Assembly: GCA_964255285.1 (NCBI GenBank)
Contig: CAXUUL010000068.1
Coordinates: 1 to 38,315, forward strand
Length of the DNA stretch: 38,315 nucleotides
Source: Ionaspis alba
Taxonomy: Eukaryota
Direction: 5' to 3'
Part shown: positions 1-24,470 of the stretch, piece after piece
Layout of the letters: each line of letters opens with the position of its first letter
Numbering within the stretch: the first letter of the stretch is position 1
The notes under the pieces: generated by a model
Database searches by the model: none
The model's input: only the letters and a program-made list of their open reading frames with translations
Told to the model about the DNA's origin: nothing
Program-made: the position numbers and the translations under genes

Positions 1-2465
1 GTTATAGTTGACCCTGTCACTTGATCCTGCCTAGTTTCGACGACTTCAAAGTGATCGACGCATGACTAATATGTCAGACTGATATTTGCTCACCTGCTGT
101 GCCCTTGTTTGACGACTCAACACTGAGTGACTGTGATTGGCTGATGCACTGAACATGTGTCCTCTACAACCGACACCAAAGATATGAAAGCCCGGTCAAG
201 GACGGTTTTCTTAACTGTTGAAAGACGAAACAATGCGAGAAAGCGCAGCAGCAGACAATGTACAGGATCAAAAGACGGCGACATTGACGTCGCCAACGCA
301 CAACAACCTTGAATCTTTCGGTAATGGTCAACTGTTCAATAATCGTGCGGATCTGAGTGGAGCTCTTGTGCAACTACACAATATAAATAGAGTGAAGAGG
401 GTCTTTGGACTCATGCAGGAACTCGAGGTCCTAGCTCTTGGATTCATGTTGGGTAGCCTGCTCTTGTTTCGTCGTGGAAGGGTAGATGGGTGCGGGGCAC
501 GTGCATGCACGAGGGCATCTGTCAAACATTTGGGAAAAGAGATGGAGGGAAAAGAGATGGAGCGCATAGATTAAGTTTGGAGTAACTTGAGTGAATGGTG
601 ATGTGTTCATCCCGAGAAACTTCATCGAAGCTGTCATGTTTCTCTGTATAAATGGTGCGTTTCACGTGTGACCAATGGGGATAGGATCCATACTATCGGA
701 GTGCTGGATGAGATGTAAATTACTATGGGACAGCATAAACGGACGCGCTGCCCCATATGAGATATGAGGTCCTGAAAGACCGAATATAGAGTGCGCGTCA
801 GATGGTTTTGGTAGCTTGTAGGCTCAAGCACGAAAGAGATGCTTCCGTGATTGTATTTGATATGATGCCCGACATCGCAGTCGAGCACGGTCGCCGATCA
901 AAGTCTGCTGGTAAACTAACAGCGAAGAGTTCATTCCACCGCATATTCTATAGTGCTTGTACATCAGATAACGGCTAGATATGGTACTCCTAATCTACTC
1001 TTCTGCACGAATGGTAGACAACGTGACTTCATCGAAGAAATTGACTGACTGCTTGTCCATAAGAGAAAGAAGGTCCGTATAACAAGCCTCGATCCTTCCA
1101 CGTAGCCGAGGCTCCCCGGCTGATTTCGACCGAAGGAACACCTGTATGAGTAGAGCAGAAGTGACGCGTCAATAATAATCATTCCTGCTGGAACCTGTCA
1201 GGGGGAATCAATACTCCACCGACACCCAGAGATGGAAGAAAAAGCGCCCAGTGCCAGGTGTGTTCGCATTTCATGAAACAAGCCCTCGAACCCTTTCAGC
1301 ATCCACCGAACTCCCTTCTCGGCACTGTCGGGCTTCTGTTCAGCGTGATGGCGGCGGAATGGATTGATTAAATTGATTGAAAACCCCTTATCGATAGTAT
1401 CAAGGATGCGGCCCCACTACGCGCCAGCTTTCCATTGGCTGCCCATCCAGACGGGAGGATTCGAGCGGCTGGCTAGACATTCGAAAAGATGGAGGCTGAT
1501 TATGATTGTTGTGGACGGCGTGGCGCCTCTGTTACCCCTGACTAACTCGATTGGCGCATATGCCGGAGCCAGGGGGTGGGGATGGGAAGGAGGACGGGCT
1601 GCGGGCTCGAACCGAACGACGGATGATTCACGAAAAAGTATACGAAGAGGAAGTCAGCTATCGATTTCGTGGTTGTCCGCAAGAGCTTGTTTAGATGGCC
1701 TCTTTACCTCGTTCTCAGTACGTCTTGTGGAAAGGATCTAGAGAAGTCGAAGCAAGTCGCGATGAATTTCCTTGCCTTTATCCTGCAGCCAGCTTATCGA
1801 TTATCGAAAGCTTGCCATCTCTATCCTCGTCAGCTTGTTCTCCCAATAGTGTTTTTTCCCAGCCCAACCTGCTGAGTCTTGTCCTTGCTATCACCCATGG
1901 GTTTGGCGCAGGTGAAATTAAATGATGGCACTGTGGTGGAGCAGGGGCATGGCCTGCCCTGGATTGGTGTGAAACGAGTTCCCTTCAATATGGAAGCCGA
2001 CTCGACAGGGTTGCAAGTATGGATGTAGTAAGTAATAGTGATAGGCCTATCGCTCTAGCCCCCCCCGCTTACTGCTTTGCTTACACTTAGTGTGAGCAGT
2101 AGTGACAGAGATCAGATCTCTGGCCATATATGCCAGCTTTCACAGCCCACTCCTGCACGTTTGCTCTTCCCTTCTCTCCCTTCTTCCCTACCACTACCTG
2201 TGCACCTTGCTGTCGTCGTCGTCTTCGTTGTCGATATTGCCTTTGCGCAATTCCTACATTCTCTTTAAAGAGCAGTCGCTCGTTTCATTCATTGGGTCTA
2301 TCTACCACAGCTGTAGAGACCTCATTCACTCCTTTACAACGCAAGACTTCACTGCACCAAGACCCTGGACGGTCCTTCCTCAAGCTTTCACTTGTACATT
2401 TGTCAAACAACACATCATTTCGAAGACTTCACCAAATACAATCGTTATCAGCAGCAGCAGCAACC

Positions 2466-4169
2466 ATGGCTCGTCTTACCTCTGCCCTCCTCCTAGCCCT
2501 CCTCGCTTCCACAGCCCTAGCGGCTCCCAAAAACCGTCGTTACGCAACCGGATCGGGAGGGACGAAGAAGCCATGCAGTACAGCAGGACCATACGGTTAT
2601 GACAACAGCACCGCAATGGCTGGACCTACAGGTACAGGTACTGGGTCAGGCCCGGTCATGCTCTCCACTGTCACCGTGGTACCCCTGCCCGCCAGCACTC
2701 CTGAGGATTCTGGATCTGCGGCCCCGCTGCCAGCATCATCAACTGCTGCAGCAGGCACCCAATGTGGTTCCGGAACCACGACTGTCACGTATACTCCGAC
2801 AGTCACAGTAACCGCTTCGAGCAACAATGCTGCCGGTGCTGCTAGCTCAACCTCTGCGGATATCACTGCGCCGTATGGCAATGGCACATCCTCTGGCTTC
2901 GCTGGACCCACTGGCTCAGATGGCCCCACCGCATTACCGAGCTTGACCGACGCACCAAGCTCCACCTTTGGCACTGCCGCTCCGTTGCCCCACTCCTCAA
3001 AGAAACACGGCCACAAGCACGAGTCTCACCACCACAGCAAGAAGCCATACCAATGGACATCGCCCATGGTGAGCCCTCCGTCAAGCTCCAGTTCAACTGC
3101 GGCTGCTGCCCCGGCTCAGTCCACTACCTCGTCAGCCATGGCCGCCTCCACTTCCGCCGGGTCTTCCACTGCCGCACCAGCTGTCAATTCGCCATCCGCC
3201 GAGGCTTCCACCGCAGCACCAGCAGCCAACTCTCCACCCGCCTACAACTCTCCTGCAGCTATCTCCTCCACTGCTGCCCCAGTAGCCCACCATCAACCCG
3301 TGTACACACCGCCTGTCAACTCCCCAATTGCCTCCAGTACACCGGCCCCTTCATCCTCCGCCGCCCCAGCACCAGCCCAGCCTTCCACTAGCTCCACCTC
3401 CGGCACCTCGTCGGGCGGTAACGGCAAACGCGGTCTCGTCTACAACACCGCCTCCCTCACCTCCCCCTTCGCCAAATCCACCAACATCAATTGGGCCTAC
3501 AATTGGGATTCGCAGTCCTCCGGCCTTAGCCCCTCGTACGAATTCGTCCCCATGCTCTGGGGCCTTGACGCCGATCACCTGAATAATTTCGACGCCAACG
3601 TCGCCAAGTGCAAGGCCGCCGGCTCCTCCCACCTCCTCGCATTCAACGAACCGGATATGCGCCGCGAGTGGGGTGGCTCCGCTTTGGACCCCGGTACTGG
3701 CGCCAGCGGCTACAAGCAGCACATTGCGCCGTACAGTGGCCAGATGAAACTAGGTAGTCCCGGTGTGTCGAACGCCAACTCGTCGTACCCGGCCATGGGC
3801 ATGCCCTGGCTTGCGCAGTTCATGAAATCCTGCAATGGAGGCTGCCCCGTCGATTTCGTTGTCGTACATTGGTACGGTGATGGGAGCAAGTCTGGCGGTG
3901 ACCAGGCCAAGGACCTCAAGTGGTATATCGATCATGTAAAGGCTGATTCGGTCAACATCTTTGGAAAGGTCATGCCCATCTGGTTGACGGAGTTTTCGGC
4001 CACGCCGATGGCGAATGCGGCCGTCAATGCTGAGTTCCTGAAGACGGCCCTGCCGTATTTGGATAACGAACCTGCCGTTGAGAGGTATAGCTTCTTCATG
4101 GTTACCGAGGGTAATCTTGTCAGCGGTGGCAGCTTGACGAGTATTGGGCAGGCTTACGTCAATAACTGA
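2466..4169 (+). CDS. Secreted GH128 / Asl1-like beta-1,3-glucanase with a long Ser/Thr/Pro/Ala linker and C-terminal catalytic domain
   Basis: ATG at 2466 in good context (caaccATGg), followed by signal peptide MARLTSALLLALLASTALA and about 300 aa of low-complexity linker. The catalytic domain has GKRGLVYN, WAYNW, EFVPMLWG, LAFNEPD, VDFVVVHWY, PIWLTEF and VERYSFF, typical of the Glyco_hydro_cc/GH128 family; the two catalytic Glu lie in NEPD and TEF. No introns needed. Confidence 0.9.
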   Translation: MARLTSALLLALLASTALAAPKNRRYATGSGGTKKPCSTAGPYGYDNSTAMAGPTGTGTGSGPVMLSTVTVVPLPASTPEDSGSAAPLPASSTAAAGTQCGSGTTTVTYTPTVTVTASSNNAAGAASSTSADITAPYGNGTSSGFAGPTGSDGPTALPSLTDAPSSTFGTAAPLPHSSKKHGHKHESHHHSKKPYQWTSPMVSPPSSSSSTAAAAPAQSTTSSAMAASTSAGSSTAAPAVNSPSAEASTAAPAANSPPAYNSPAAISSTAAPVAHHQPVYTPPVNSPIASSTPAPSSSAAPAPAQPSTSSTSGTSSGGNGKRGLVYNTASLTSPFAKSTNINWAYNWDSQSSGLSPSYEFVPMLWGLDADHLNNFDANVAKCKAAGSSHLLAFNEPDMRREWGGSALDPGTGASGYKQHIAPYSGQMKLGSPGVSNANSSYPAMGMPWLAQFMKSCNGGCPVDFVVVHWYGDGSKSGGDQAKDLKWYIDHVKADSVNIFGKVMPIWLTEFSATPMANAAVNAEFLKTALPYLDNEPAVERYSFFMVTEGNLVSGGSLTSIGQAYVNN

Positions 4170-4684: not shown

Positions 4685-5539
4685 TCAAAGTTCCATCCCG
4701 TCCTCCCACTCCAACCTCTCTTCCGGCACCCCATGGGGAAACCATGGATTTCTCCTACTCGCCGGTACCTTCCCCTCCTTCTCAGCATCATACTCCTCTC
4801 CCATTACCATCCTTTCCGCCTCCTTCTCCATCCCAAAAAAACACGCCCAGAAAACCTCAAACTTCTTCATCTTCCTCCCTCCCAATCTCTCCACCACTGT
4901 CCGCACAATCGCCTCATACGCCTCACGCACATATTCCAAATCCGACTCCTCTAACCGTTGTTCCTGATAGGTCTCGAACGCCCCACCGGCATCGAGCGAG
5001 AATTCCAGCTCGGGTACATCGAGGTTGTCCACGACAAACTCAATTAGCTCTTCCCACTCCCCGCGCAACTGACTCCACTCCCTCACCTCGGAACTCGCAA
5101 ACTGACAATCCATCCGCCTCACCTCCTTCACACTCTGACCCTGCGCCTTCAACCACTCCAAACTCTTCCTAGGGGGTCCTGAAAACACAAGCCTGTTTTC
5201 CCGCAGCATCACCTCACGCGCATCCTCGCTTAGTGGGTTTGAGGCTACCAGAAGAGAGTGGGGGAAGCTGTAGCAGTCGCAGGATGCGGGTCCGTGGTCG
5301 CATTTGAGTGGAGCTTGAGAGGTGGGTTGGCCGTCCTGGATTAGTAGGCCGGTGCCCCACCAGCCGGGGCGATAGCGAGCGATCAGGTCGGTTTTTGCGA
5401 GAGCGGACTGGCGATCCTCCTTAGAGAGAGCCATGAGAGTGGAGCTCGCTGGAAGGGAGGAATATGTCGAAGATGTCATGGCTTCTTTCAAACCGCTGGA
5501 GGGAATCTGTAGCAAGACGATATTTATCTGGTCGAACAT
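4685..5539 (-). CDS. Acidic cytoplasmic hypothetical protein with a degenerate F-box-like N-terminal motif
   Basis: Intronless 284-aa ORF (alternative start at 5479). LMALSKEDRQSALAKTDL resembles the fungal 'FLxLPxEIRxxILxxTDL' motif. SLLVASNPLSEDAREVMLRENRLVF and ERMVMGEEYDAEKEGK resemble a recurrent Pezizomycotina hypothetical family (from memory). Glu-rich C-terminal half, no signal peptide. Confidence 0.75.
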   Translation of the reverse strand: MFDQINIVLLQIPSSGLKEAMTSSTYSSLPASSTLMALSKEDRQSALAKTDLIARYRPGWWGTGLLIQDGQPTSQAPLKCDHGPASCDCYSFPHSLLVASNPLSEDAREVMLRENRLVFSGPPRKSLEWLKAQGQSVKEVRRMDCQFASSEVREWSQLRGEWEELIEFVVDNLDVPELEFSLDAGGAFETYQEQRLEESDLEYVREAYEAIVRTVVERLGGRKMKKFEVFWACFFGMEKEAERMVMGEEYDAEKEGKVPASRRNPWFPHGVPEERLEWEDGMEL

Positions 5540-6368
5540 GCAGATGCGTAGATGGACTAAGGTTCTGTAAGAGGTTTAATCTCGCGAAATAGATGTTGAA
5601 AAGTGGTAAGCAAGGGTTATATATTTTCGGACAAATAATGAATTGTTTGTGAAATCTCAAACGGTCTGTGAGAATATGGGCTCATCCCACCGATATTTTA
5701 TGATATCACAAGCTCTACACCAAAGAGCTGGGTGTTCAGCATTATTATGTGAAGGTGTCCAACACTTGTGACAATGGCCCAGCGGGAGGACAACAGCCGT
5801 CCCGGTTGGGTTTGATCAACCAATAGATGGTCTTATTCGCGCTAGCTCTAACGAATGGTGTAAGGCTCATCTGGGAAGAGTATGTTAGAAGATGGTTGGG
5901 TAGGTTCCAACATGTTGAATCGTGCTCGCTTAATGCTCTTGGCTGCATAGTTTTGATATCAGAGGTCGATAAGGAGATTGATCAGGGCAGAACTTTGGTA
6001 AGGCTTGGGGTGGTGACTTCATACCAACTATGGCAAGGTGCAGTTCAGAATGAAGTGAAACCACTGTGCTACGGAGGATTTCTATTTCCCAATGGCAGTT
6101 TCGACTACCAATCGCTTAACTCGTTCTTCGGGCCCCGATGAAGATTGAAGTAGGATTTGGAGAGCCCACTGTCCAAGCTGTTGTTGTAGTTGCATGTGTA
6201 TAGATGTCGGCATTATATCTTGATCGTTGTTTGTCACGTCTAGTCATCCTGCATATTTGACGGATCATCGTCTTGTCTTTTTGTAATTTCTTTGTGGCAA
6301 ATTCAGGAGCAGGTCTCCTCCCTTTCATTCATAGTATAACTCAGCAACTTAATCTTTGCACATTTATC

Positions 6369-7568
6369 ATGAAATTAAGCATTCTCACGCTCACTGCTTC
6401 GCTGCTATCGCTTGGTGTTCAGGCCGTACCAGTCAAGTCCAGTGATATCAAGCCTGTCACTGACGCCAATGGGGCCACCCGATATCAAGCCTCGGAGCCG
6501 GCTAAAGGCGTGCCGCACCCAGATGCTCTCAATAGTAAGAGCAAACAATTTCACGAAGACGTGCTTGAACAGCATAAGCAGAACACGGACGGGAAGAAGA
6601 CTGATCCACCAAATATGTCTTCTGCACAATATCATGCAGCAGACAATACCATCCAGTACTCATCAACAGGCAGGGGTGGAGGAAAGGGGCCCATGAATGA
6701 CGCATACCAGAAGGCTGCCAAAGATGAAGCAAAGGACAGAGGTGTCCCAAAGTGCACTCACCCATCCAATGGTAGGTGTGCGGAGGGAGGCACGACTTCT
6801 CAAAACATCGACAAAGGTTCTCCCAACATGAAAGGCGATATGGTCTCGTCATATGGTACCGCCAAGAAGGGTGATTCAAAAGAACCCGTTACAGCCCATC
6901 ATCCAGGTTGCTCGGGCAAGAACGCGAATCAAATTGGCTGTAAAGATGTTCTCAAGAATCAGGGCATTACAGATGTCAATCACCCCAAACCAGGTGAGTC
7001 AATGCAGCTCAAGGATATTGGGATGCACCTACAGCAAGCTGATATCTCGATGGCAGGCGTCCAAGATGCGCAGAACAGCATTCCCAAGGGCAAAGTCAAG
7101 GACGCAGTGGGGCAACTCGATCCGAAGCAGAAGAGCAAACACCGAGGCCAGGACGCCAAGCAAACCGTTCCGCAAGGCAAGGTTAAAGACACAACCAAAA
7201 GCCTCGAAGACCAAAGGGTTTTAGCACAGAAGAACGCAGAAAAAGCGAAGAAAGCCAAGGAGCTGAAGAACAATGGCAAAGACGCTTCCCAGAAATCAGG
7301 GCCAGGATTCAAAGGCCCGAAACCTCCTCCCGCACCACCTCTACCACCGCAACCTAAGAAGAACAGCCGGCCATTGCCTAAGAAGAACAGTGCACCTCCG
7401 TCTCCGAAGAGTAAGCCGTCGACAGGAAAGTCTACCAGCTCTAAGAAAGGAGGGAAGAAAGGCCGAAGGTTCTTGCAGGCTCGCCAACTTCTCGAACTAC
7501 GACGAAGCGCGATAGAGAGACGGGACTTTGTAGATTACCTGCGTAGACAGCAGGCTTTGAGCGTTTGA
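6369..7568 (+). CDS. Secreted Lys-rich protein with a putative Zn-dependent deaminase-like domain (candidate toxin/effector)
   Basis: ATG at 6369 gives signal peptide MKLSILTLTASLLSLGVQA; intronless, 399 aa. Motifs THPSNGRCAE (CAE at 6777-6785) and HPGCSGKNANQIGCKDVLKNQGI (Cys codons at 6909 and 6939). These are followed by two repeats, a PKPPPAPPLPPQP tract and a C-terminus with RR dibasic sites. Confidence 0.8.
   Translation: MKLSILTLTASLLSLGVQAVPVKSSDIKPVTDANGATRYQASEPAKGVPHPDALNSKSKQFHEDVLEQHKQNTDGKKTDPPNMSSAQYHAADNTIQYSSTGRGGGKGPMNDAYQKAAKDEAKDRGVPKCTHPSNGRCAEGGTTSQNIDKGSPNMKGDMVSSYGTAKKGDSKEPVTAHHPGCSGKNANQIGCKDVLKNQGITDVNHPKPGESMQLKDIGMHLQQADISMAGVQDAQNSIPKGKVKDAVGQLDPKQKSKHRGQDAKQTVPQGKVKDTTKSLEDQRVLAQKNAEKAKKAKELKNNGKDASQKSGPGFKGPKPPPAPPLPPQPKKNSRPLPKKNSAPPSPKSKPSTGKSTSSKKGGKKGRRFLQARQLLELRRSAIERRDFVDYLRRQQALSV
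7062..7193 (+). repeat. Intragenic imperfect tandem repeat, 87-nt (29-aa) period
   Basis: QDAQNSIPKGKVKDA starts at 7062 and QDAKQTVPQGKVKDT starts at 7149. A second short duplication, cctaagaagaacag (PKKNS twice), lies near 7353-7391. Confidence 0.8.
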
Positions 7569-8720
7569 TTCCAGACATACAATATCGAAGGGGGGGCCTC
7601 ATTTCGTTGCCAGGCTTTACTGCAATAGATAGTCGTGAGCAAGAGAAGCAGCTCTCCGGCAGAGGCCACTGCCTTGCCTTTTGCCATTCATGGTGATATT
7701 CGAGTCTATGGATCACTGTCAAATCTAACTCGAAGAGCATTTGAGTGATATGATGGCTGATCACCGAGCCCCTGATACTCAACAACGCCCAGCATAGAGG
7801 CAGAGGACCTCGAAAGTGGCTGGGCTGGTGCTGGTGCAGGCACAATCCATCCCAAGAAGAGTGGCGATGTTGCAATAGGCTGCGGGCCCTTACTTGCCGT
7901 TGAATCTCCAAATTCGGAGCCAAGTCGTGCCGATGTGCCGGCTTCCAGCCGTGTTTCAACCGTGAGCCGGAATTGTTCATGTTTCAAATAGAGCCATCTC
8001 TGTGCACATACAAGCATAGGAGAGACTCGTCGACAAAAGTAGCGGGAGGGAGTAGAGGGAAACGGGGTACGTAGTCTATACAAAAGCCCGTATCTACCAA
8101 GCCAAGATGTAGCGACCCTTCCCATCAGCATCAGCATCATCTTGCTTTCTTCCTTGTCTTCATGCACCTAAATGTCAAGGCCGAGGACCTTCCTTTCTAG
8201 ATCTCATCACAGGATGGAATCAACCAACGTTTATGACTTGCATGCTCTAGTGGTCTGTGCGACAAGCCATGGGGATGGAGGGGGAATTTACTCCACAAGG
8301 ATGTGCCTCCAGTGTGGAGACCTAACAGTGTCCGGCCGACTATTACTGCAGAGTCCAAACTACTATTCGCTCGCAGACTTGCATACATGTGTTGGGACTA
8401 GACATAGTATCCGGGCAATGATATTCCACCATCCGCGTCGGTTGCCTTCTTTGGATGCGGAGATTCAAGGGATCTTCAATCTACTCGTACGCGCATTGTG
8501 CAGTGCCCAGCACCAAGTGGTCACGGTCAAGTCATAAAAGAAGTCAGATGTACAAGATATCTCATTCACTGTAAGTCACTCCCTTGCAGATCCGCAGCAT
8601 CAAATGAGGACCTCGACTTTCACTCTTTCTCCTCAGCTTTGAGATATTTACTACCTTTCCTCCTGTTCCACCGGTCAAGTCAAAACATCATCCACTGATC
8701 CTGGTATCTTGTAAGTCAAG

Positions 8721-19839: not shown

Positions 19840-22800
19840 ATGGCGTTCAGCTTCGCAAGCGCTAGTGGCTCAGCGCTTAGGGGTGGATCAAGCAATGCTC
19901 AGATACAAGCCGGCCCTGATCTAGAGGAGATCAATACAGAGGTAAGTCTCTCCGAGGGCCATACCAGGAGTATTGCAATCTGATGTCTGTTCGCTAGGCT
20001 CTAGGATTTCAGGCGATCTCAGGAGAATCCAAAGTCCGATTACTTCCAAATCCTTGGCCTGTGGACGCTCTCCCTCCACCCACCGCATCCTTATTGAGTG
20101 TTGCTTCGAACAAAGGTCTACTTGCAGCAGCTGGACCAGAGTCCGTCATAATAGCCAGGACCGGATCTGTGATACAGGGGTTTGATGCAGACGATGGTAC
20201 CGGCAGTAATATCAAATCCTTCTCGCCTCAGCTCACCTTACCTGTTGGGATCAGAGTATCCCAGGTTGCCTTCTCAGCAGATGAGAACTACCTTGCCATC
20301 TCTGCTGAGACCGGTGGAGGCCTGGCAGTCTACGAAGTCCAAGCGCTTATGCAAGGACATACGCAATCAGCTTTTCAAATTGCCACGAACGGGACTTCTT
20401 TGCGTGCTCTAACGCCAAACCCTACGCCAGAGAAGGCCGAATTGTTCGCGGTGGTCACATCAAAAGGGGATTTAATGATAGCAAACATGAAGACACGACA
20501 GTTCTTGAGTGGGCCGCGCGGCCAGGTCATGAAAGAGGGAGTCAGCTGTGTGTCCTGGAGTAACAAAGGTAAACAACTCATCGCAGGTCTTGGGGACGGC
20601 ACGGGATTTCAAATGACGCCGGAAGGAGAGGGGAAGGCGGACATTCCAAGACCGCCTGGTCTGGACGGAGATCAACACGGTATGTTGTTTATCGGATCCA
20701 ATGTTTGAATGGGTCATTCGCTGACACCGCCAGTGTCTGCTATCTCATGGCTCGAGAACGATGTTTTCCTTCTAGCACATACGCCTTCGTCTGCTAACAC
20801 GGATATGGCTCCTGCAACCACTTACAGCCTTGTAACACGTCAATCCCCTGCAAGTTTCACCTTTCAAAAACTGCCCGAGGTCTGTGGACCGTTTGGACTT
20901 AATCGATCTCCTTCATTCCAATTTATGCAACGATTAAAAGTCTTTCCACCTAATATCCAAGACATAGTCTTGGTCGCTTCAACGGCATCGATAGACATAG
21001 GTGTTTTCACTCGAGCGAAATCGCCGCTAGCCAAAGATGTTGCCCCCGAAAAGATTACAAACGTGTTTACTACTACCATGATGGCAGTCGACTCACGTAG
21101 AGCACAGCTTCCGATGACAGCAGATATGACTACGGATACGTCCCCTATCGGCATGGCGCTAGATCTTTCGAGTGGTATCAAGGTCTCGCGTCCTCTACCG
21201 GGTGAAGAGATAGACGAATCTCAAGGGCCACTCCCTGCGCTAATGGTTCTAAACAATGATGGCATTCTCGTAGCTTGGTGGATCGTGTATGCGGACTCGG
21301 TCAGGCAAGGCAGTACATATCCAGGTCTGGTAGCTGTAGCTGTTCATCAGCAGTCTCAAGCTCCTCAAACATCACAACCACCCTTTTCTTCTGCGCCGCA
21401 GGCGGCAGCACCTGTTTCTGGCCAAAGCACTTTTAGCACATCTTCCATCAATCCTTTTGGTGCCGCGATGGCTAACACATCTGCGGCTCCTGCTTTTGGT
21501 ACTTCAGCTTCCTTGAGTTCTACCTCTGGTGCCTTTGGCAGCCCGTCAGGTCTTGGTACCCAGCAGTCTCCATGGGGTGCACCCAATAACTCCAACCAAT
21601 TTGCAGTACCTGCTTTTGGTAAGCCATCATTTGGCACGTCGACCTCTCTTGGTGCTGCAACGCAAGGCAGTGCGTTCGGTACTAGTGGAGGTTTGGGGGC
21701 TCGCCATTCACCTTGGGGTACTTCTACTGCTGCTGCTGCTGCTCCAACGGCGCCTACAAGCGTATTTGGACAACCAGGGGGGATTGGTCTACGGAGTGGA
21801 AGTGCCTTTGGGGGAACCAGTTCAGGCTCGGCTTTTGGGACTTCTACATTTCCCACAAGCGGTTCTGGAGGTGGGTTTGCAGCTTTCGCGAAAGGATCTG
21901 GATTCGCGTCTTCCGCAGCTCCGAGCACGGGGAGCAATTTCGGCAAGCAGGATGGAGCCTTGACCTCTCTGGCTGAACAGAAGCCTGGCGGTACTATGTT
22001 TGGGAAACCGAGCACGCCTGCGGCAGTTTCTTTCGACTCGACAATGGACGTTGGTTCCAGTTTCGGTACGACCCCCAAAAAATCCGACGACAAGCCTGGT
22101 GGCCTATTCGGCAGTGGCAATTCATTTGTTCTAGGCTCATCATGGAAAAGCGACAATCCACCGAAAGACGATATTCCTCAAACAACACAAACATCTACGG
22201 CCTCCTTCTTTGGCAACAACTTTGGCCAGGCGCTCGGAGAGACGACTATGAGCTCCACTGAGGCACAGACGGAAGAAGCTGAAATGCAGTCAGAAGCCAG
22301 CGAGCAGGGCGGTTTTCCAGAAAGCCCAGCTTCCGAGGTTCCAAGGGACACCACCACTCCAGCCGAAACTCCTGCACCATCGAAATTTTTCTCTGCTCCC
22401 CCTCTGACAGGAGGTCTGTTTGGAACACAGGCTCAGAGTAACACGACACCGGTTGCTGTTCAAAGCAGTGCCCCAGCTCCTCCTATGTTCGGGCAGCCGA
22501 TGACATCTCGGACATCACCAAGACCAAAATCACCCACTGTAAAGCAGGAACCACTTGAAACCCCACCGGGTGTGCGTCACGCTCTTCCTGAAGCACCGTT
22601 GCCAGTAGATTCGACGACAAAGCTCAGCTATACACCTGGCGGGTCATCTGCATCCTCGACAGTCGCTTCAAAGTCTTCTCATGAAGATGTGGATGCACCA
22701 ACACCACTCAATGATGCCGCTCCGTCGCCTCCACCTCCTACGAAAGCTGGGCCAATCGCAGCAACACCCGAAACTCCGACCGACAACATGCCCCCTCCTC

Positions 22801-24470
22801 CCACGCCAGTGCCATCAAAGCCGAGACCATTACATTCTCAGGACGCAACCCACGAAGAATTACCACTCTCTGGAGAGGACGAAGAGACCGGTTTAGATGA
22901 CGAAGGCAGTGGAGTGGACTTGGGTCAAGAAACTAGTCCAAACTCAGACCCAGATCACAGCCTGAACATCACGCCTGAGAGTTCTTTTGGAGGGAAAAGC
23001 GACAAAAGTCCTTTGGGCGGCTTGTTTCAAAACATTAGCAAGCAACAACCCACGAAATCTCTCTTTGGTGAAATTGGAAAGACCTCGGCTCCTGTCTTCC
23101 CACCACCAAAGATACAGCAAAGCCCCAGATCGCCTAGCCCGATACGTTCTTTGCTGCATGACCATGTTCTACGTCCTGACACCGCAAGATCCGTCAGCGC
23201 TCCCGGTCCTCCATCTAGAGGCGGCATCACTCGTAAACCATTGTCGAATAGACCTCCTCACAGTAACATATCTTCAAAGGCTATACTTCCAATACATTTT
23301 CCAGAGCATGAAGAGCAAGATCGCCTGGCTCTCACAGTACGACCCGAGGGAGAAGAGCTGAGTGACCGGGAGGATGAGAGGGTTCGCGCAGAATTAGCTA
23401 CGGAGATTGCATGCACCATGAATCTTGAACCTTTCCTCGCGCACAAAGACTATGTCGGCGATGCTGTCAAACCGGGCATTCCGGGCCAGATAGAAACGGT
23501 CTACCGAGACATCAATTCCATGATCGATATTCTCGGTCTCAACTCTCGCTCTTTGCAAGCTTTCATCAAAGGTCACGACAACTATAAGGAAGCCGGACGT
23601 AGCAGAGAAGACCTCGAGGATACCAAGCCCTGGTGTATTGTCGAGGTCAGCGATCTTACCGGTGTTCAGCAGGCACTGGAGAGCGACCTCGAGCAAGGCC
23701 GCCTACAGCATGCAGATGAGAAAGCCAACGAGTGCTTGGCACTGAGGAAGGACCTCAGAAATATTGAAGTCAAGGTCGAGGAGATCCAACACATCGTTGA
23801 CACAAAAGATGATCCAATTCAAATCGAGGTTCTCCGCCAGAAACCGCTCTCCAATGATCAGTCAAATCTCCGGAAAGATCTGCGAAGACACCTTGCAGCT
23901 ATCCAGGCCTTGCTAACGGAAGCTGAGGGAAGCATAACCCTGCTAAGAGCGAAGCTTGCAGCACAAAACACTGGCAAGAGCAAGCAGGGTGGAGTGCCGA
24001 AAGTCCCAACTGTCGAGGCTGTCGAACGAACGATTCGCAGAATGACGGAGATGGTTCAAGAGAAAAGTGGAGATATAGATGTTCTGGAAAACCAGATGCG
24101 AAGAATGAATGTCCTCAGCAGCCCCACTAGCAGTCGTGAAGGCTCACCCTTCGTAACGCCTCCCACTTCCATTAGAAAAGGCAAGCCGCTACTTCGCACG
24201 CCGGGAACGGGTACGAGTCTAAATGGTCCTGGATCGTTCTATACGCCAGTGAGCTCGAGAAGTACATTCGCAAATCCACTGGCTTCCAGTATCACTGGTT
24301 TTAGACCTTCGCCAAGGAAGAAACTAGATCAGGTCGACGCAGTGGACGCGAGGAGATATGGGAAAAGGGCGACAAAGCGGAGGGAGATCAATGGACTATT
24401 AAAGAACGTGCTCGTAAAAGACGGGATAAGGGTTCGGAGCGTGGATGGCTTGTGCAAAAGATCTCTATGA
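19840..24470 (+). CDS. NUP159: FG-nucleoporin Nup159/Nup146/Nup214 homologue
   Basis: Exons 19840-19941, 19998-20679 and 20734-24470; introns 19942-19997 and 20680-20733. N-terminal beta-propeller (SLLSVASNKGLLAAAGP, VSCVSWSNKGKQLIAG, LMVLNNDGILVAW), a central AFG/SFG/LFG repeat region, a Pro/Ser-rich linker and a C-terminal coiled coil. Confidence 0.93.

Follow-up and report, generated by a model that had tools for sequence, protein, structure and literature searches.

The window analysed here (positions 1-38,315 of contig CAXUUL010000068.1 from the Ionaspis alba assembly GCA_964255285.1; 38,315 nucleotides) contains an open reading frame whose product combines a signal-peptide-like start, a compact predicted domain and a long Lys/Pro-rich tail that ends in a basic helix (Table 1). 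The initial annotation had confined this feature to 6369..6980, a range that is too short because it takes in the signal peptide and the folded domain only; the frame stays open to a stop codon at 7566-7568 and thus encodes 399 residues. The motifs and the residue numbering that it had quoted (C137, E139, C181 and C191) are all present in one frame. NMSSAQYH...IQYSSTGRG corresponds to residues 82-103, THPSNGRCAE to residues 130-139 and GDMVSSYG to residues 156-163, and HPGC-x9-CKDVLKNQGI places C181 at 6909-6911 and C191 at 6939-6941 with a spacer of exactly 9 residues.

Table 1. Features of the open reading frame, with positions in the window
Feature	Positions	Strand	Residues	Basis or remark
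Whole open reading frame, including a possible retained intron	6369..7568	+	399 aa	Stop 7566-7568
Predicted signal peptide (MK, hydrophobic core, then VQA followed by V)	6369..6425	+	1-19	Read from the sequence
N-terminal beta-hairpin (conserved RYQAxE) and long helix 1	6438..6584	+	24-72	AlphaFold2 strands 28-31 and 37-44, helix 51-72; homologue conservation
Predicted deaminase-fold core	6501..6983	+	about 45-205	Structural matches, AlphaFold2
Cap-insert histidine H131	6759..6761	+	131	19 of 19 homologue rows; YwqJ-clade feature in the clade descriptions of Iyer 2011
C137-A-E139, proposed first zinc ligand and catalytic Glu	6777..6785	+	137-139	N-terminus of helix 2 (138-148)
C181-x9-C191, proposed second and third zinc ligands	6909..6941	+	181-191	C191 opens helix 3 (191-197)
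Lys/Pro/Gln-rich linker, mostly disordered, one confident helix (residues 272-301)	6984..7454	+		Full-length AlphaFold2; K 17%, P 11%
Possible in-frame intron, 63 nt (GTGAGT ... CTGAT ... CAG)	6994..7056	+		Canonical signals
PPPAPPLPP stretch in the linker	7314-7361	+
KKGRR dibasic site, then conserved basic amphipathic C-terminal helix	7455..7565	+	363-399

Is the frame interrupted by an intron? The candidate intron at 6994-7056 matches exactly a 21-residue gap relative to the homologue P0003, and the protein may be 378 residues long if this segment is removed. Two observations count against an intron: the homologue P0009 is weakly alignable across the segment, and DNA-like contigs from two public runs contain no joint across it. 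Compared with a second haplotype from a public run, the undisputed coding sequence shows 10 differences, of which 8 are synonymous, and this pattern supports a real gene in this frame.

The neighbouring genes have housekeeping roles (GH20, Pil1, NUP159 and proteasome), with no obvious effector compartment, and the upstream open reading frame has no Pfam match. The gene is single-copy in the window, where no paralogue or cassette was found. No adjacent immunity gene was identified nearby, and the fungal locus lacks the combination of a delivery domain and a neighbouring immunity gene that forms the context of polymorphic toxins.

Predicted export signal, tail and family

The N-terminal residues 1-19, MKLSILTLTASLLSLGVQA (6369-6425), form the signal-peptide-like start that the initial annotation had also recognized, and the best 12-residue hydropathy window in the N-terminus reaches 1.82. 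The protein is thus predicted to be exported, as far as its sequence can indicate, and no ER-retention or transmembrane signal is visible in it. Five homologues (P0003-P0007) share a hydrophobic start. A sister subfamily that consists of P0008 and P0016-P0020 lacks the hydrophobic N-terminus, and three of its members begin with M-[SA]-F-P.

The region downstream of the folded domain was assessed in a separate full-length AlphaFold2 model. Confidence in the linker falls below a pLDDT of 50 at residues 246-250, 253-271, 305-316, 330-349 and 351-358, and the C-terminal helix (residues 364-398) is modelled with block pLDDT values of 69-87. The first [KR]R pair of the whole protein lies at residues 366-367. 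Homologues that bear a tail repeat the same order of elements, in which the dibasic site is followed by the helix and then by an aromatic/acidic end.

The protein belongs to a small fungal family that has no database name and is not detected by Pfam. We found 21 members, all of which come from unannotated ENA or Logan assemblies. In hmmscan searches, the window protein matched 0 Pfam families at E<=10, and none of the 21 members matched a deaminase family at the same threshold. Phmmer and profile searches of the PDB yielded no relevant match, and a protein search with the 21-row family profile recovered no further members. No relative was detected with the domain in a scan of bacterial and archaeal genomes or in two JGI metagenome scans.

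Predicted deaminase fold and putative zinc site

A second AlphaFold2 model, restricted to residues 20-215, has a pLDDT of 89.6 and a pTM of 0.86. It contains a three-layer alpha/beta/alpha core with strand 1, strand 2, helix 2, strand 3 and helix 3. When the model was compared with 48,161 chains in an all-against-all VIA-align search, the top match was blasticidin-S deaminase (3oj6; rmsd 3.7, 108 aligned residues) with a Z score of 9.4, which is modestly above the best Z of 7-8 that is typical of queries with no clear match. Cytidine deaminase (3dmo, Z 8.5) and guanine deaminase (1tiy, Z 8.0) followed, and the matches cover model residues 26-193, which correspond to protein residues 45-212. 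Zinc deaminases make up all but two (SPD_0310 and ATIC) of the 26 rows at Z>=5; of these 24, 22 carry the name in their titles, and the Msmeg3575 and RibD rows are taken by us to be deaminases as well. Toxin deaminases appear lower among the VIA-align rows, with an SsdA-type protein (9c63) at Z 5.6 and DddA at Z 4.0 (6u08) and 3.7 (8e5d), and the best structural matches are enzymes of free nucleosides or bases, not toxins. Foldseek returned no match in the PDB at E<=0.001, and the single coherent family among its hits was blasticidin-S deaminase (2z3h_A, probability 0.84, E 0.14). The deaminase fold that had been guessed from motifs is supported for about residues 45-205 by the predicted structure and by these matches.

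A bare motif of CxE plus two later cysteines could occur by chance. In the homologue alignment, 19 of 19 rows share H131, C137, E139, G141 and T142, and 20 of 20 share C181 and C191. In the model, C137 directly precedes helix 138-148 and C191 is the first residue of helix 191-197; the canonical zinc-ligand sites of the deaminase fold are the N-termini of helices 2 and 3. Because the pattern is retained in 19-20 homologues and sits at these helix N-termini, it goes beyond a chance occurrence, and we regard C137, C181 and C191 as a putative zinc triad. Both C-x-E and the distal cysteines, whose conservation had been in question, are kept in every homologue row that covers them. The expanded spacer between the two distal cysteines, likewise anticipated in the initial annotation, is a family-wide trait, with 7-13 residues in the homologues compared with 2 in the canonical CxxC motif. 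Inserts within CxxC are described for the Tad1/ADAR, RibD and ZK287.1 clades in the clade accounts of Iyer 2011 (PMC3239186).

Two other structural arrangements were considered and rejected. The C-terminal helix is unlikely to supply the missing helix 4 and strand 5, as the full-length model adds long helices only and no strand. The four cysteines of the window protein are also poor candidates for two disulfides. The fourth cysteine, C129, is kept in 6 of 19 rows, and P0016-P0020, which lack a signal peptide, have exactly three cysteines, those of the triad; this distribution fits a zinc triad rather than disulfides. None of the three outcomes that the initial annotation had named as contrary to its reading was observed, with fold and conservation examined directly and disulfides indirectly.

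Comparison with known deaminase clades

Cytidine deaminase (CDA) and blasticidin-S deaminase (BSD) provide the closest structural matches (3dmo and 3oj6), and their likeness to the fungal domain extends to a Cys3 zinc site with C-A-E at helix 2, which is putative here and follows the CDA motif as given in Iyer 2011. These enzymes, however, act on free nucleosides and combine PCxxC with strands 4-5 and an oligomeric active site, whereas the fungal domain stops after helix 3 and a short strand, with a lengthened Cys motif and two large inserts. In the structural alignments, 14-16% of residues are identical, and the core alone superposes. The Pfam models of this clade do not match the protein, whose Cys motif is not PCxxC and whose model has no strands 4-5.

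The secreted deaminases of the AID/APOBEC type, which include SNADs and dictyosteliid proteins, resemble the fungal protein in being eukaryotic and in having N-terminal signal peptides, and their delivery to pathogens or other cells has been proposed in the account of Krishnan et al. 2018 (PMC5889660). They differ in that they belong, according to the same account, to the AID/APOBEC clade within the helix-4 division and come from animals and slime moulds. Neither the window protein nor the 21 family members matched the Pfam SNAD or APOBEC models at E<=10. The type VI toxins DddA (6u08, 8e5d) and SsdA-type (9c63) are similar in that they are compact exported deaminase toxin domains, but their Z scores lie below those of the CDA-type matches, and they have canonical PCxxC, T6SS delivery and cognate immunity proteins. 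Toxins of the DddA/SsdA type use an HxE motif. For the OTT_1508-like clade (PF14441), which comprises expanded fungal deaminases and was defined by GxxK before CxxC and by a loop and helix 4, no match was obtained at E<=10 with the protein or the 21 members. PF14441 was present in 0 of the 151 genomes searched, which provided no comparison alignment for this clade.

The YwqJ-like clade (PF14431) is described by Iyer, Zhang, Rogozin and Aravind (2011, PMC3239186), in the portion that concerns it, as a domain that serves as the toxin in bacterial polymorphic toxins and has a few members in basidiomycetes. Several of the diagnostic features given there recur in the fungal domain. The Gx[CH]xE motif of their Table 1 corresponds to G135-R-C-A-E at helix 2; its glycine is kept in most of the longer, tail-bearing relatives and is replaced by N in the short subfamily. 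A cap insert contributes a helix (residues 111-124) and H131, and a further insert separates strand 3 from the Cys motif: after strand 158-166 comes an additional strand (173-178), which runs into H178-P-G-C181. The domain also ends early, as several YwqJ members do after helix 3 or strand 4: past helix 191-197, the full-length model has a two-residue strand (201-202), then a low-confidence helix and disorder. Export, which is predicted here, is a further shared feature. The fungal protein differs from the clade in having C-x7-13-C in place of CxxC, a eukaryotic signal peptide in place of LXG/RHS/T7SS-type delivery modules, and a Lys/Pro-rich tail with a basic C-terminal helix of its own.

Sequence statistics are less favourable to this assignment. 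PF14431 (cut-off 25.9 bits) did not match the window protein or any of the 21 members at E<=10, and a comparison of the family with 19 genome-derived PF14431 domains by hhalign gave an E of 0.23, which falls short of significance. Scripted hhalign runs scored 16.5-19.0 (P 0.02-0.07) and their reversed controls 7.4-12.7 (P 0.25-0.92); one set of these runs gave P 0.03-0.07, with 0.25-0.55 for its controls. The family aligns collinearly with Streptomyces YwqJ-type domains across 108 columns, and every landmark motif is in register. Among the language-model neighbours, PF14431 is carried by 11-24% of the members in the three closest Atlas clusters that have a name (scores 0.90, 0.89 and 0.88). 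A profile search of the PDB detected no YwqJ-family sequence. Thus, the YwqJ-like relationship suggested in the initial annotation is upheld by the published diagnostic features and the Atlas neighbours and not by Pfam, and the hhalign scores do not reach significance: the modelled domain fits a YwqJ-type architecture, and its membership of the clade has weak statistical support at best. In the part of a preprint that reports an activity screen (10.1101/2023.06.29.547047), the DNA-active families did not include YwqJ.

Proposed function and alternative readings

We propose, with slightly better than even confidence, that the protein is an exported, catalytically competent zinc deaminase of an unnamed fungal family that likely acts on a polynucleotide or nucleotide base of another cell. 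A cleavable signal peptide would be followed by a 160-residue deaminase-fold domain in which C137, C181 and C191 would hold a zinc ion and E139 would shuttle a proton for the hydrolytic deamination of an amino-substituted base. The domain would be stripped down and C-terminally truncated in the manner of bacterial YwqJ-type toxins, with the H131 cap insert and an extra hairpin before the Cys motif, and would lack the closed tetrameric architecture of nucleoside-salvage enzymes. Since the architecture would be of the YwqJ type and not that of a salvage-type tetramer, the cells affected would be those of a competitor, host or symbiont, and the likely substrate a base within one of their polynucleotides or nucleotides. 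The tail of about 190 residues, rich in Lys and Pro, and the basic C-terminal helix would have a part in delivery or in processing, for instance through Kex2-type cleavage at dibasic residues ahead of the helix. As a tentative extension, which we consider possible rather than probable, the protein may be a fungal base-editing toxin, a YwqJ-like deaminase that leaves the cell by classical secretion, spares its producer through co-translational export and perhaps through a basic C-terminal helix removed at a dibasic site, enters a competitor, host or symbiont by means of the Lys/Pro tail and deaminates RNA or DNA there. The seemingly cytosolic relatives suggest that the domain is not indiscriminately lethal, which counts against our proposal, as do the housekeeping surroundings of the gene, the lack of YwqJ among the DNA-active families, the free-substrate enzymes at the top of the structural matches, the modest margin of the best Z score, the non-canonical Cys spacer and the absence of a significant match by sequence methods or Foldseek.

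The three best structural matches act on free substrates, and the protein has a signal peptide, yet no translocation domain is recognizable by Pfam or in the full-length model. These points favour an extracellular small-molecule deaminase whose substrate in the medium would be a free base, nucleoside, nucleoside antibiotic, cytokinin or pterin, with a role in detoxification, nutrient salvage or signal destruction and no action on nucleic acids in other cells. We find this rather doubtful, given that strands 4-5 and the C-terminal elements, which close the tetramer pocket in CDA and BSD, are missing from the domain, that it finds no match among their Pfam models and that it is placed nearer the YwqJ toxin clade by its architecture and its language-model neighbours; moreover, a basic, proline-rich tail of 190 residues would be unexpected in a salvage enzyme. 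It is improbable that the signal peptide instead directs the enzyme to the ER or vacuole, where it would act on the fungus's own or invading nucleic acids, for example to counter mycoviruses or transposons or to bring about cell death during hyphal incompatibility. Such roles have been proposed for other fungal deaminase expansions in the relevant discussion of Iyer 2011 (PMC3239186), action in the ER is considered for SNADs in that of Krishnan 2018 (PMC5889660), and the sister subfamily without a hydrophobic N-terminus would suit an intracellular enzyme. The classical signal-peptide-like starts of the window protein and five relatives, the lack of a visible retention or membrane signal and the single copy in the window, with no expansion, nevertheless speak against it.

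Two further readings dispense with catalysis. A catalytically inactive zinc- or nucleic-acid-binding module that keeps the deaminase scaffold seems quite improbable: the catalytic Glu is usually lost in inactive versions, and here 19 of 19 rows retain it, while the three ligands and the cap His are conserved as well. The 7-13-residue insert that breaks CxxC would agree with inactivity, as would the frequency of inactive deaminase domains in the superfamily (Iyer 2011, Table 1, PMC3239186). Finally, the cysteines may form disulfides that stabilize a secreted protein with no metal site, so that the likeness to deaminases would extend to the shared fold only. Four cysteines in a protein predicted to be secreted, and the extra disulfide cysteines noted for secreted SNADs in Krishnan 2018 (PMC5889660), accord with this alternative, which the initial annotation had itself raised. 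The patchy retention of C129, the five signal-less relatives that have the triad cysteines alone and the position of the three conserved cysteines at the zinc-ligand sites of the fold make it extremely improbable, and the putative zinc triad remains our preferred interpretation.

Deaminase toxins are well known in bacteria, where they are the source of the DddA-type and TadA-type base editors. Secreted eukaryotic deaminases are reported, as far as the account of Krishnan 2018 (PMC5889660) extends, only from animals and slime moulds, and our full-text literature search found no description of a secreted fungal deaminase. If active, the protein would represent a new enzymatic class in fungal secretomes and would open to biochemical study a small deaminase of the monomer type whose zinc motif is unusual, and it would provide a candidate fungal mechanism for antagonism or host manipulation via base editing. 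The modelled fold and motif suggest a possible role as a weapon or effector of the fungus, one that would act by chemical editing of nucleic acids. Should its action as a toxin prove true, it would be the first described secreted nucleic-acid deaminase weapon in fungi, and its compact deaminase scaffold, in which the zinc motif is stretched, would be new.

The gene, its neighbourhood and its family

The window is a segment of a fungal chromosome whose long open frames encode a GH20 hexosaminidase, the eisosome protein Pil1, NUP159, a proteasome beta subunit, a KH protein and a glycoside hydrolase in addition to the deaminase-like protein P0001. The initial annotation had assigned P0001 to 6369..6980; position 6980 is the end of the folded domain (N204), whereas the open frame continues to 7568. 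Its motifs, its numbering of C137, E139, C181 and C191 and its nine-residue spacer are all correct in the P0001 translation. Compared with the window, a second haplotype found in a public run carries 10 differences in the undisputed coding part; eight of the ten are synonymous, the pattern that purifying selection on a gene read in this frame predicts. Over 6200-7700, two sequence versions occur within one public run at a depth of roughly 3:1. Within the gene about 1% of sites differ between them, and upstream more do (seven differences are listed in 6244-6296), which suggests that two strains, nuclei or alleles were sampled.

A possible intron would lie outside the deaminase domain. It matches exactly a 21-residue gap in the alignment to the homologue P0003, which argues for splicing, whereas the homologue P0009 aligns weakly across it, which argues against. 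No splice joint across it was found in the DNA-like contigs of public runs.

Coordinates of features in the window (nucleotides) and in the full-length model of P0001 (residues)
Feature	Position	Strand	Details
Deaminase-like gene	6369..7568	+	single open frame, 399 codons
Possible intron	6994-7056	+	63 nt, in frame; GTGAGT start, CTGAT 13 nt before end, CAG end
Upstream neighbour	4685-5575	-	284-296-codon frame, opposite strand; no Pfam match
687-codon frame	2106-4169	+	Glyco_hydro_cc catalytic core only in last 240 residues; N-terminal 440 residues without Pfam match; GC content peaks here within the window (0.60 at 3001-4000)
NUP159/214 beta-propeller	19998-24470	+	divided over adjoining frames 19998-20708 and 20709-24470; intron or frame change likely at the junction
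Low-confidence helix	residues 210-237		overlaps possible intron
Confident helix	residues 272-301
Disordered Lys/Pro-rich stretches	after domain		long, including PPPAPPLPP
C-terminal helix	residues 364-398

To which family does P0001 belong? Pfam contains no match to P0001 at E<=10, none of the 21 family members hits a deaminase family there, and PDB sequence and profile searches with the protein or the family returned nothing. Scanning 1.84 billion cluster representatives exhaustively with HMMER retrieved 14 proteins at E<=0.001, including P0002, a 99% identical copy of P0001, and a profile search added seven further members. All originate from ENA or Logan assemblies and lack both a name and a precomputed Pfam domain. 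No relatives were found in the bacterial and archaeal genomes and JGI metagenomes scanned. A short sister subfamily (P0008 and P0016-P0020; 197-220 aa) has the same deaminase domain and lacks a signal peptide; its Cys spacer is longer (11-13), its short tail is rich in Arg with aromatic residues at the end, and an M-[SA]-F-P start is conserved in three members. P0016-P0020 contain exactly three cysteines and P0008 has a fourth. These proteins probably represent a cytosolic form that serves another role.

Predicted fold and putative zinc site

The AlphaFold2 model of P0001 residues 20-215, built from a 14-row alignment, is confident (pLDDT 89.6, pTM 0.86). It comprises a beta-hairpin and long helix 1, strands 1 and 2, an inserted helix, helix 2, strand 3, an additional strand that runs into H178-P-G-C181, helix 3 and a short strand. 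Helix 2 begins right after C137, and helix 3 begins at C191. Foldseek gave no match at E<=0.001, with blasticidin-S deaminase as the only coherent family (prob 0.84). An independent structural search of 48,161 chains was led by blasticidin-S deaminase (Z 9.4), cytidine deaminase (Z 8.5) and guanine deaminase (Z 8.0), followed by plant and E. coli CDA, TadA/ABE8e, ADAT2/3, dCMP deaminases, yeast cytosine deaminase and RibD; among toxins, a T6SS cytidine deaminase toxin reached Z 5.6 and DddA Z 4.0. Because best Z values of 7-8 are common for unmatched models, we place weight on the uniformity of the list and the motif positions rather than on the top score alone. Twenty-two of the 26 matches with Z>=5 are deaminases by title and two more, Msmeg3575 and RibD, we take to be deaminases (24/26); SPD_0310 and ATIC make up the rest. 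The deaminase fold originally proposed is thus borne out by the model.

In alignment A5 (21 sequences; denominators are the rows covering a position), H131, C137, E139, G141 and T142 are kept in 19/19 rows, C181 and C191 in 20/20 and H178 in 19/20, and the C181-C191 spacer varies from 7 to 13 residues. The fourth cysteine, C129, is kept in only 6/19. The members without a hydrophobic N-terminus, P0016-P0020, have only the three proposed ligand cysteines. A Cys3 zinc site predicts an odd, invariant cysteine triad with a glutamate two residues after the first cysteine, and the triad's retention even in apparently cytosolic relatives fits such a site rather than disulfides. The conservation anticipated for the four residues was therefore found, and the disulfide alternative is disfavoured.

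Comparison with YwqJ-type deaminases

The YwqJ clade, which has basidiomycete members, is described by Iyer et al. (2011, PMC3239186) through four defining features, including Gx[CH]xE in helix 2, an insert that separates strand 3 from the CxxC motif and, often, truncation after helix 3 or strand 4. All four features of that description are present in the sequence and model of P0001. In contrast to CxxC, the Cys motif of P0001 is stretched, for which the same paper offers precedents in the Tad1/ADAR, RibD and ZK287.1 clades. When the family domain was compared by hhalign with 19 PF14431 domains from bacterial genomes, the E value was 0.23 over 34 columns, with GKCAEGG aligned with GRCPEA. In a scripted comparison, the family domain scored 16.5-19.0 (P 0.02-0.07) and reversed controls 7.4-12.7 (P 0.25-0.92); against the Streptomyces type it aligns collinearly over 108 columns, and every landmark is in register. 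The profile similarity is above control and not significant. As a lead only, three PF14431-bearing clusters come first among named clusters in a protein-language-model Atlas (0.90, 0.89, 0.88; PF14431 in 11-24% of their members). Given shared features and a non-significant profile score, P0001 appears to be built like, and would work like, a YwqJ-type deaminase, and we do not file it under PF14431; the earlier YwqJ-like reading holds for architecture but not for statistical membership.

The Pfam YwqJ-deaminase family matched 349/351 genomes sampled from the family to which a Streptomyces genome belongs, in most of them a single time, and 4/351 genomes sampled from the class of a Bacillus genome. 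The Streptomyces-type domain has GRCPE in place of CAE, and a long insert follows its helix 2. Its near-universal occurrence in single copy resembles that of a housekeeping gene more than that of a polymorphic toxin.

Predicted secretion, tail and proposed function

P0001 starts with MK, a 15-residue hydrophobic core and VQA|V, a classical signal-peptide-like segment as judged by eye and hydropathy. In the full-length model (pLDDT 72.9), the deaminase domain is unchanged. R366-R367 is the first [KR]R dipeptide in all of P0001 and directly precedes the C-terminal helix; tailed homologues share this ending of dibasic site, basic helix and aromatic/acidic end. A Kex2-type protease may cut at the dibasic site, and the tail may serve in delivery or auto-inhibition.

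At the level of model and alignment, the fold and the placement and conservation of the motifs are established. By analogy with established deaminase chemistry, C137, C181 and C191 would bind zinc and activate a zinc-bound water, and E139 would shuttle a proton, resulting in deamination of a cytosine, adenine or guanine ring. The signal peptide would carry the protein out of the cell. The truncated, capped, monomer-type domain would resemble polynucleotide-acting toxin deaminases, whereas the main rival, an extracellular small-molecule deaminase, is favoured by the top structural matches. RNA, tRNA or nucleotides are as likely substrates as DNA, given that DNA activity was concentrated in 5/13 families, YwqJ not among them, in a published screen (preprint 10.1101/2023.06.29.547047).

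Full-text literature searches found no secreted fungal deaminase, and a term look-up of 'deaminase' in the fungal effector structure atlas PMC9816061 gave no occurrence. SNADs and dictyosteliid AADs are stated in Krishnan 2018 to be unique among the deaminases of eukaryotes in that they are secreted. The deaminase superfamily and its toxin clades are already known, as is the spread of these clades into fungi; the family itself, its putative stretched zinc motif, its predicted fungal secretory context and its tail are new.
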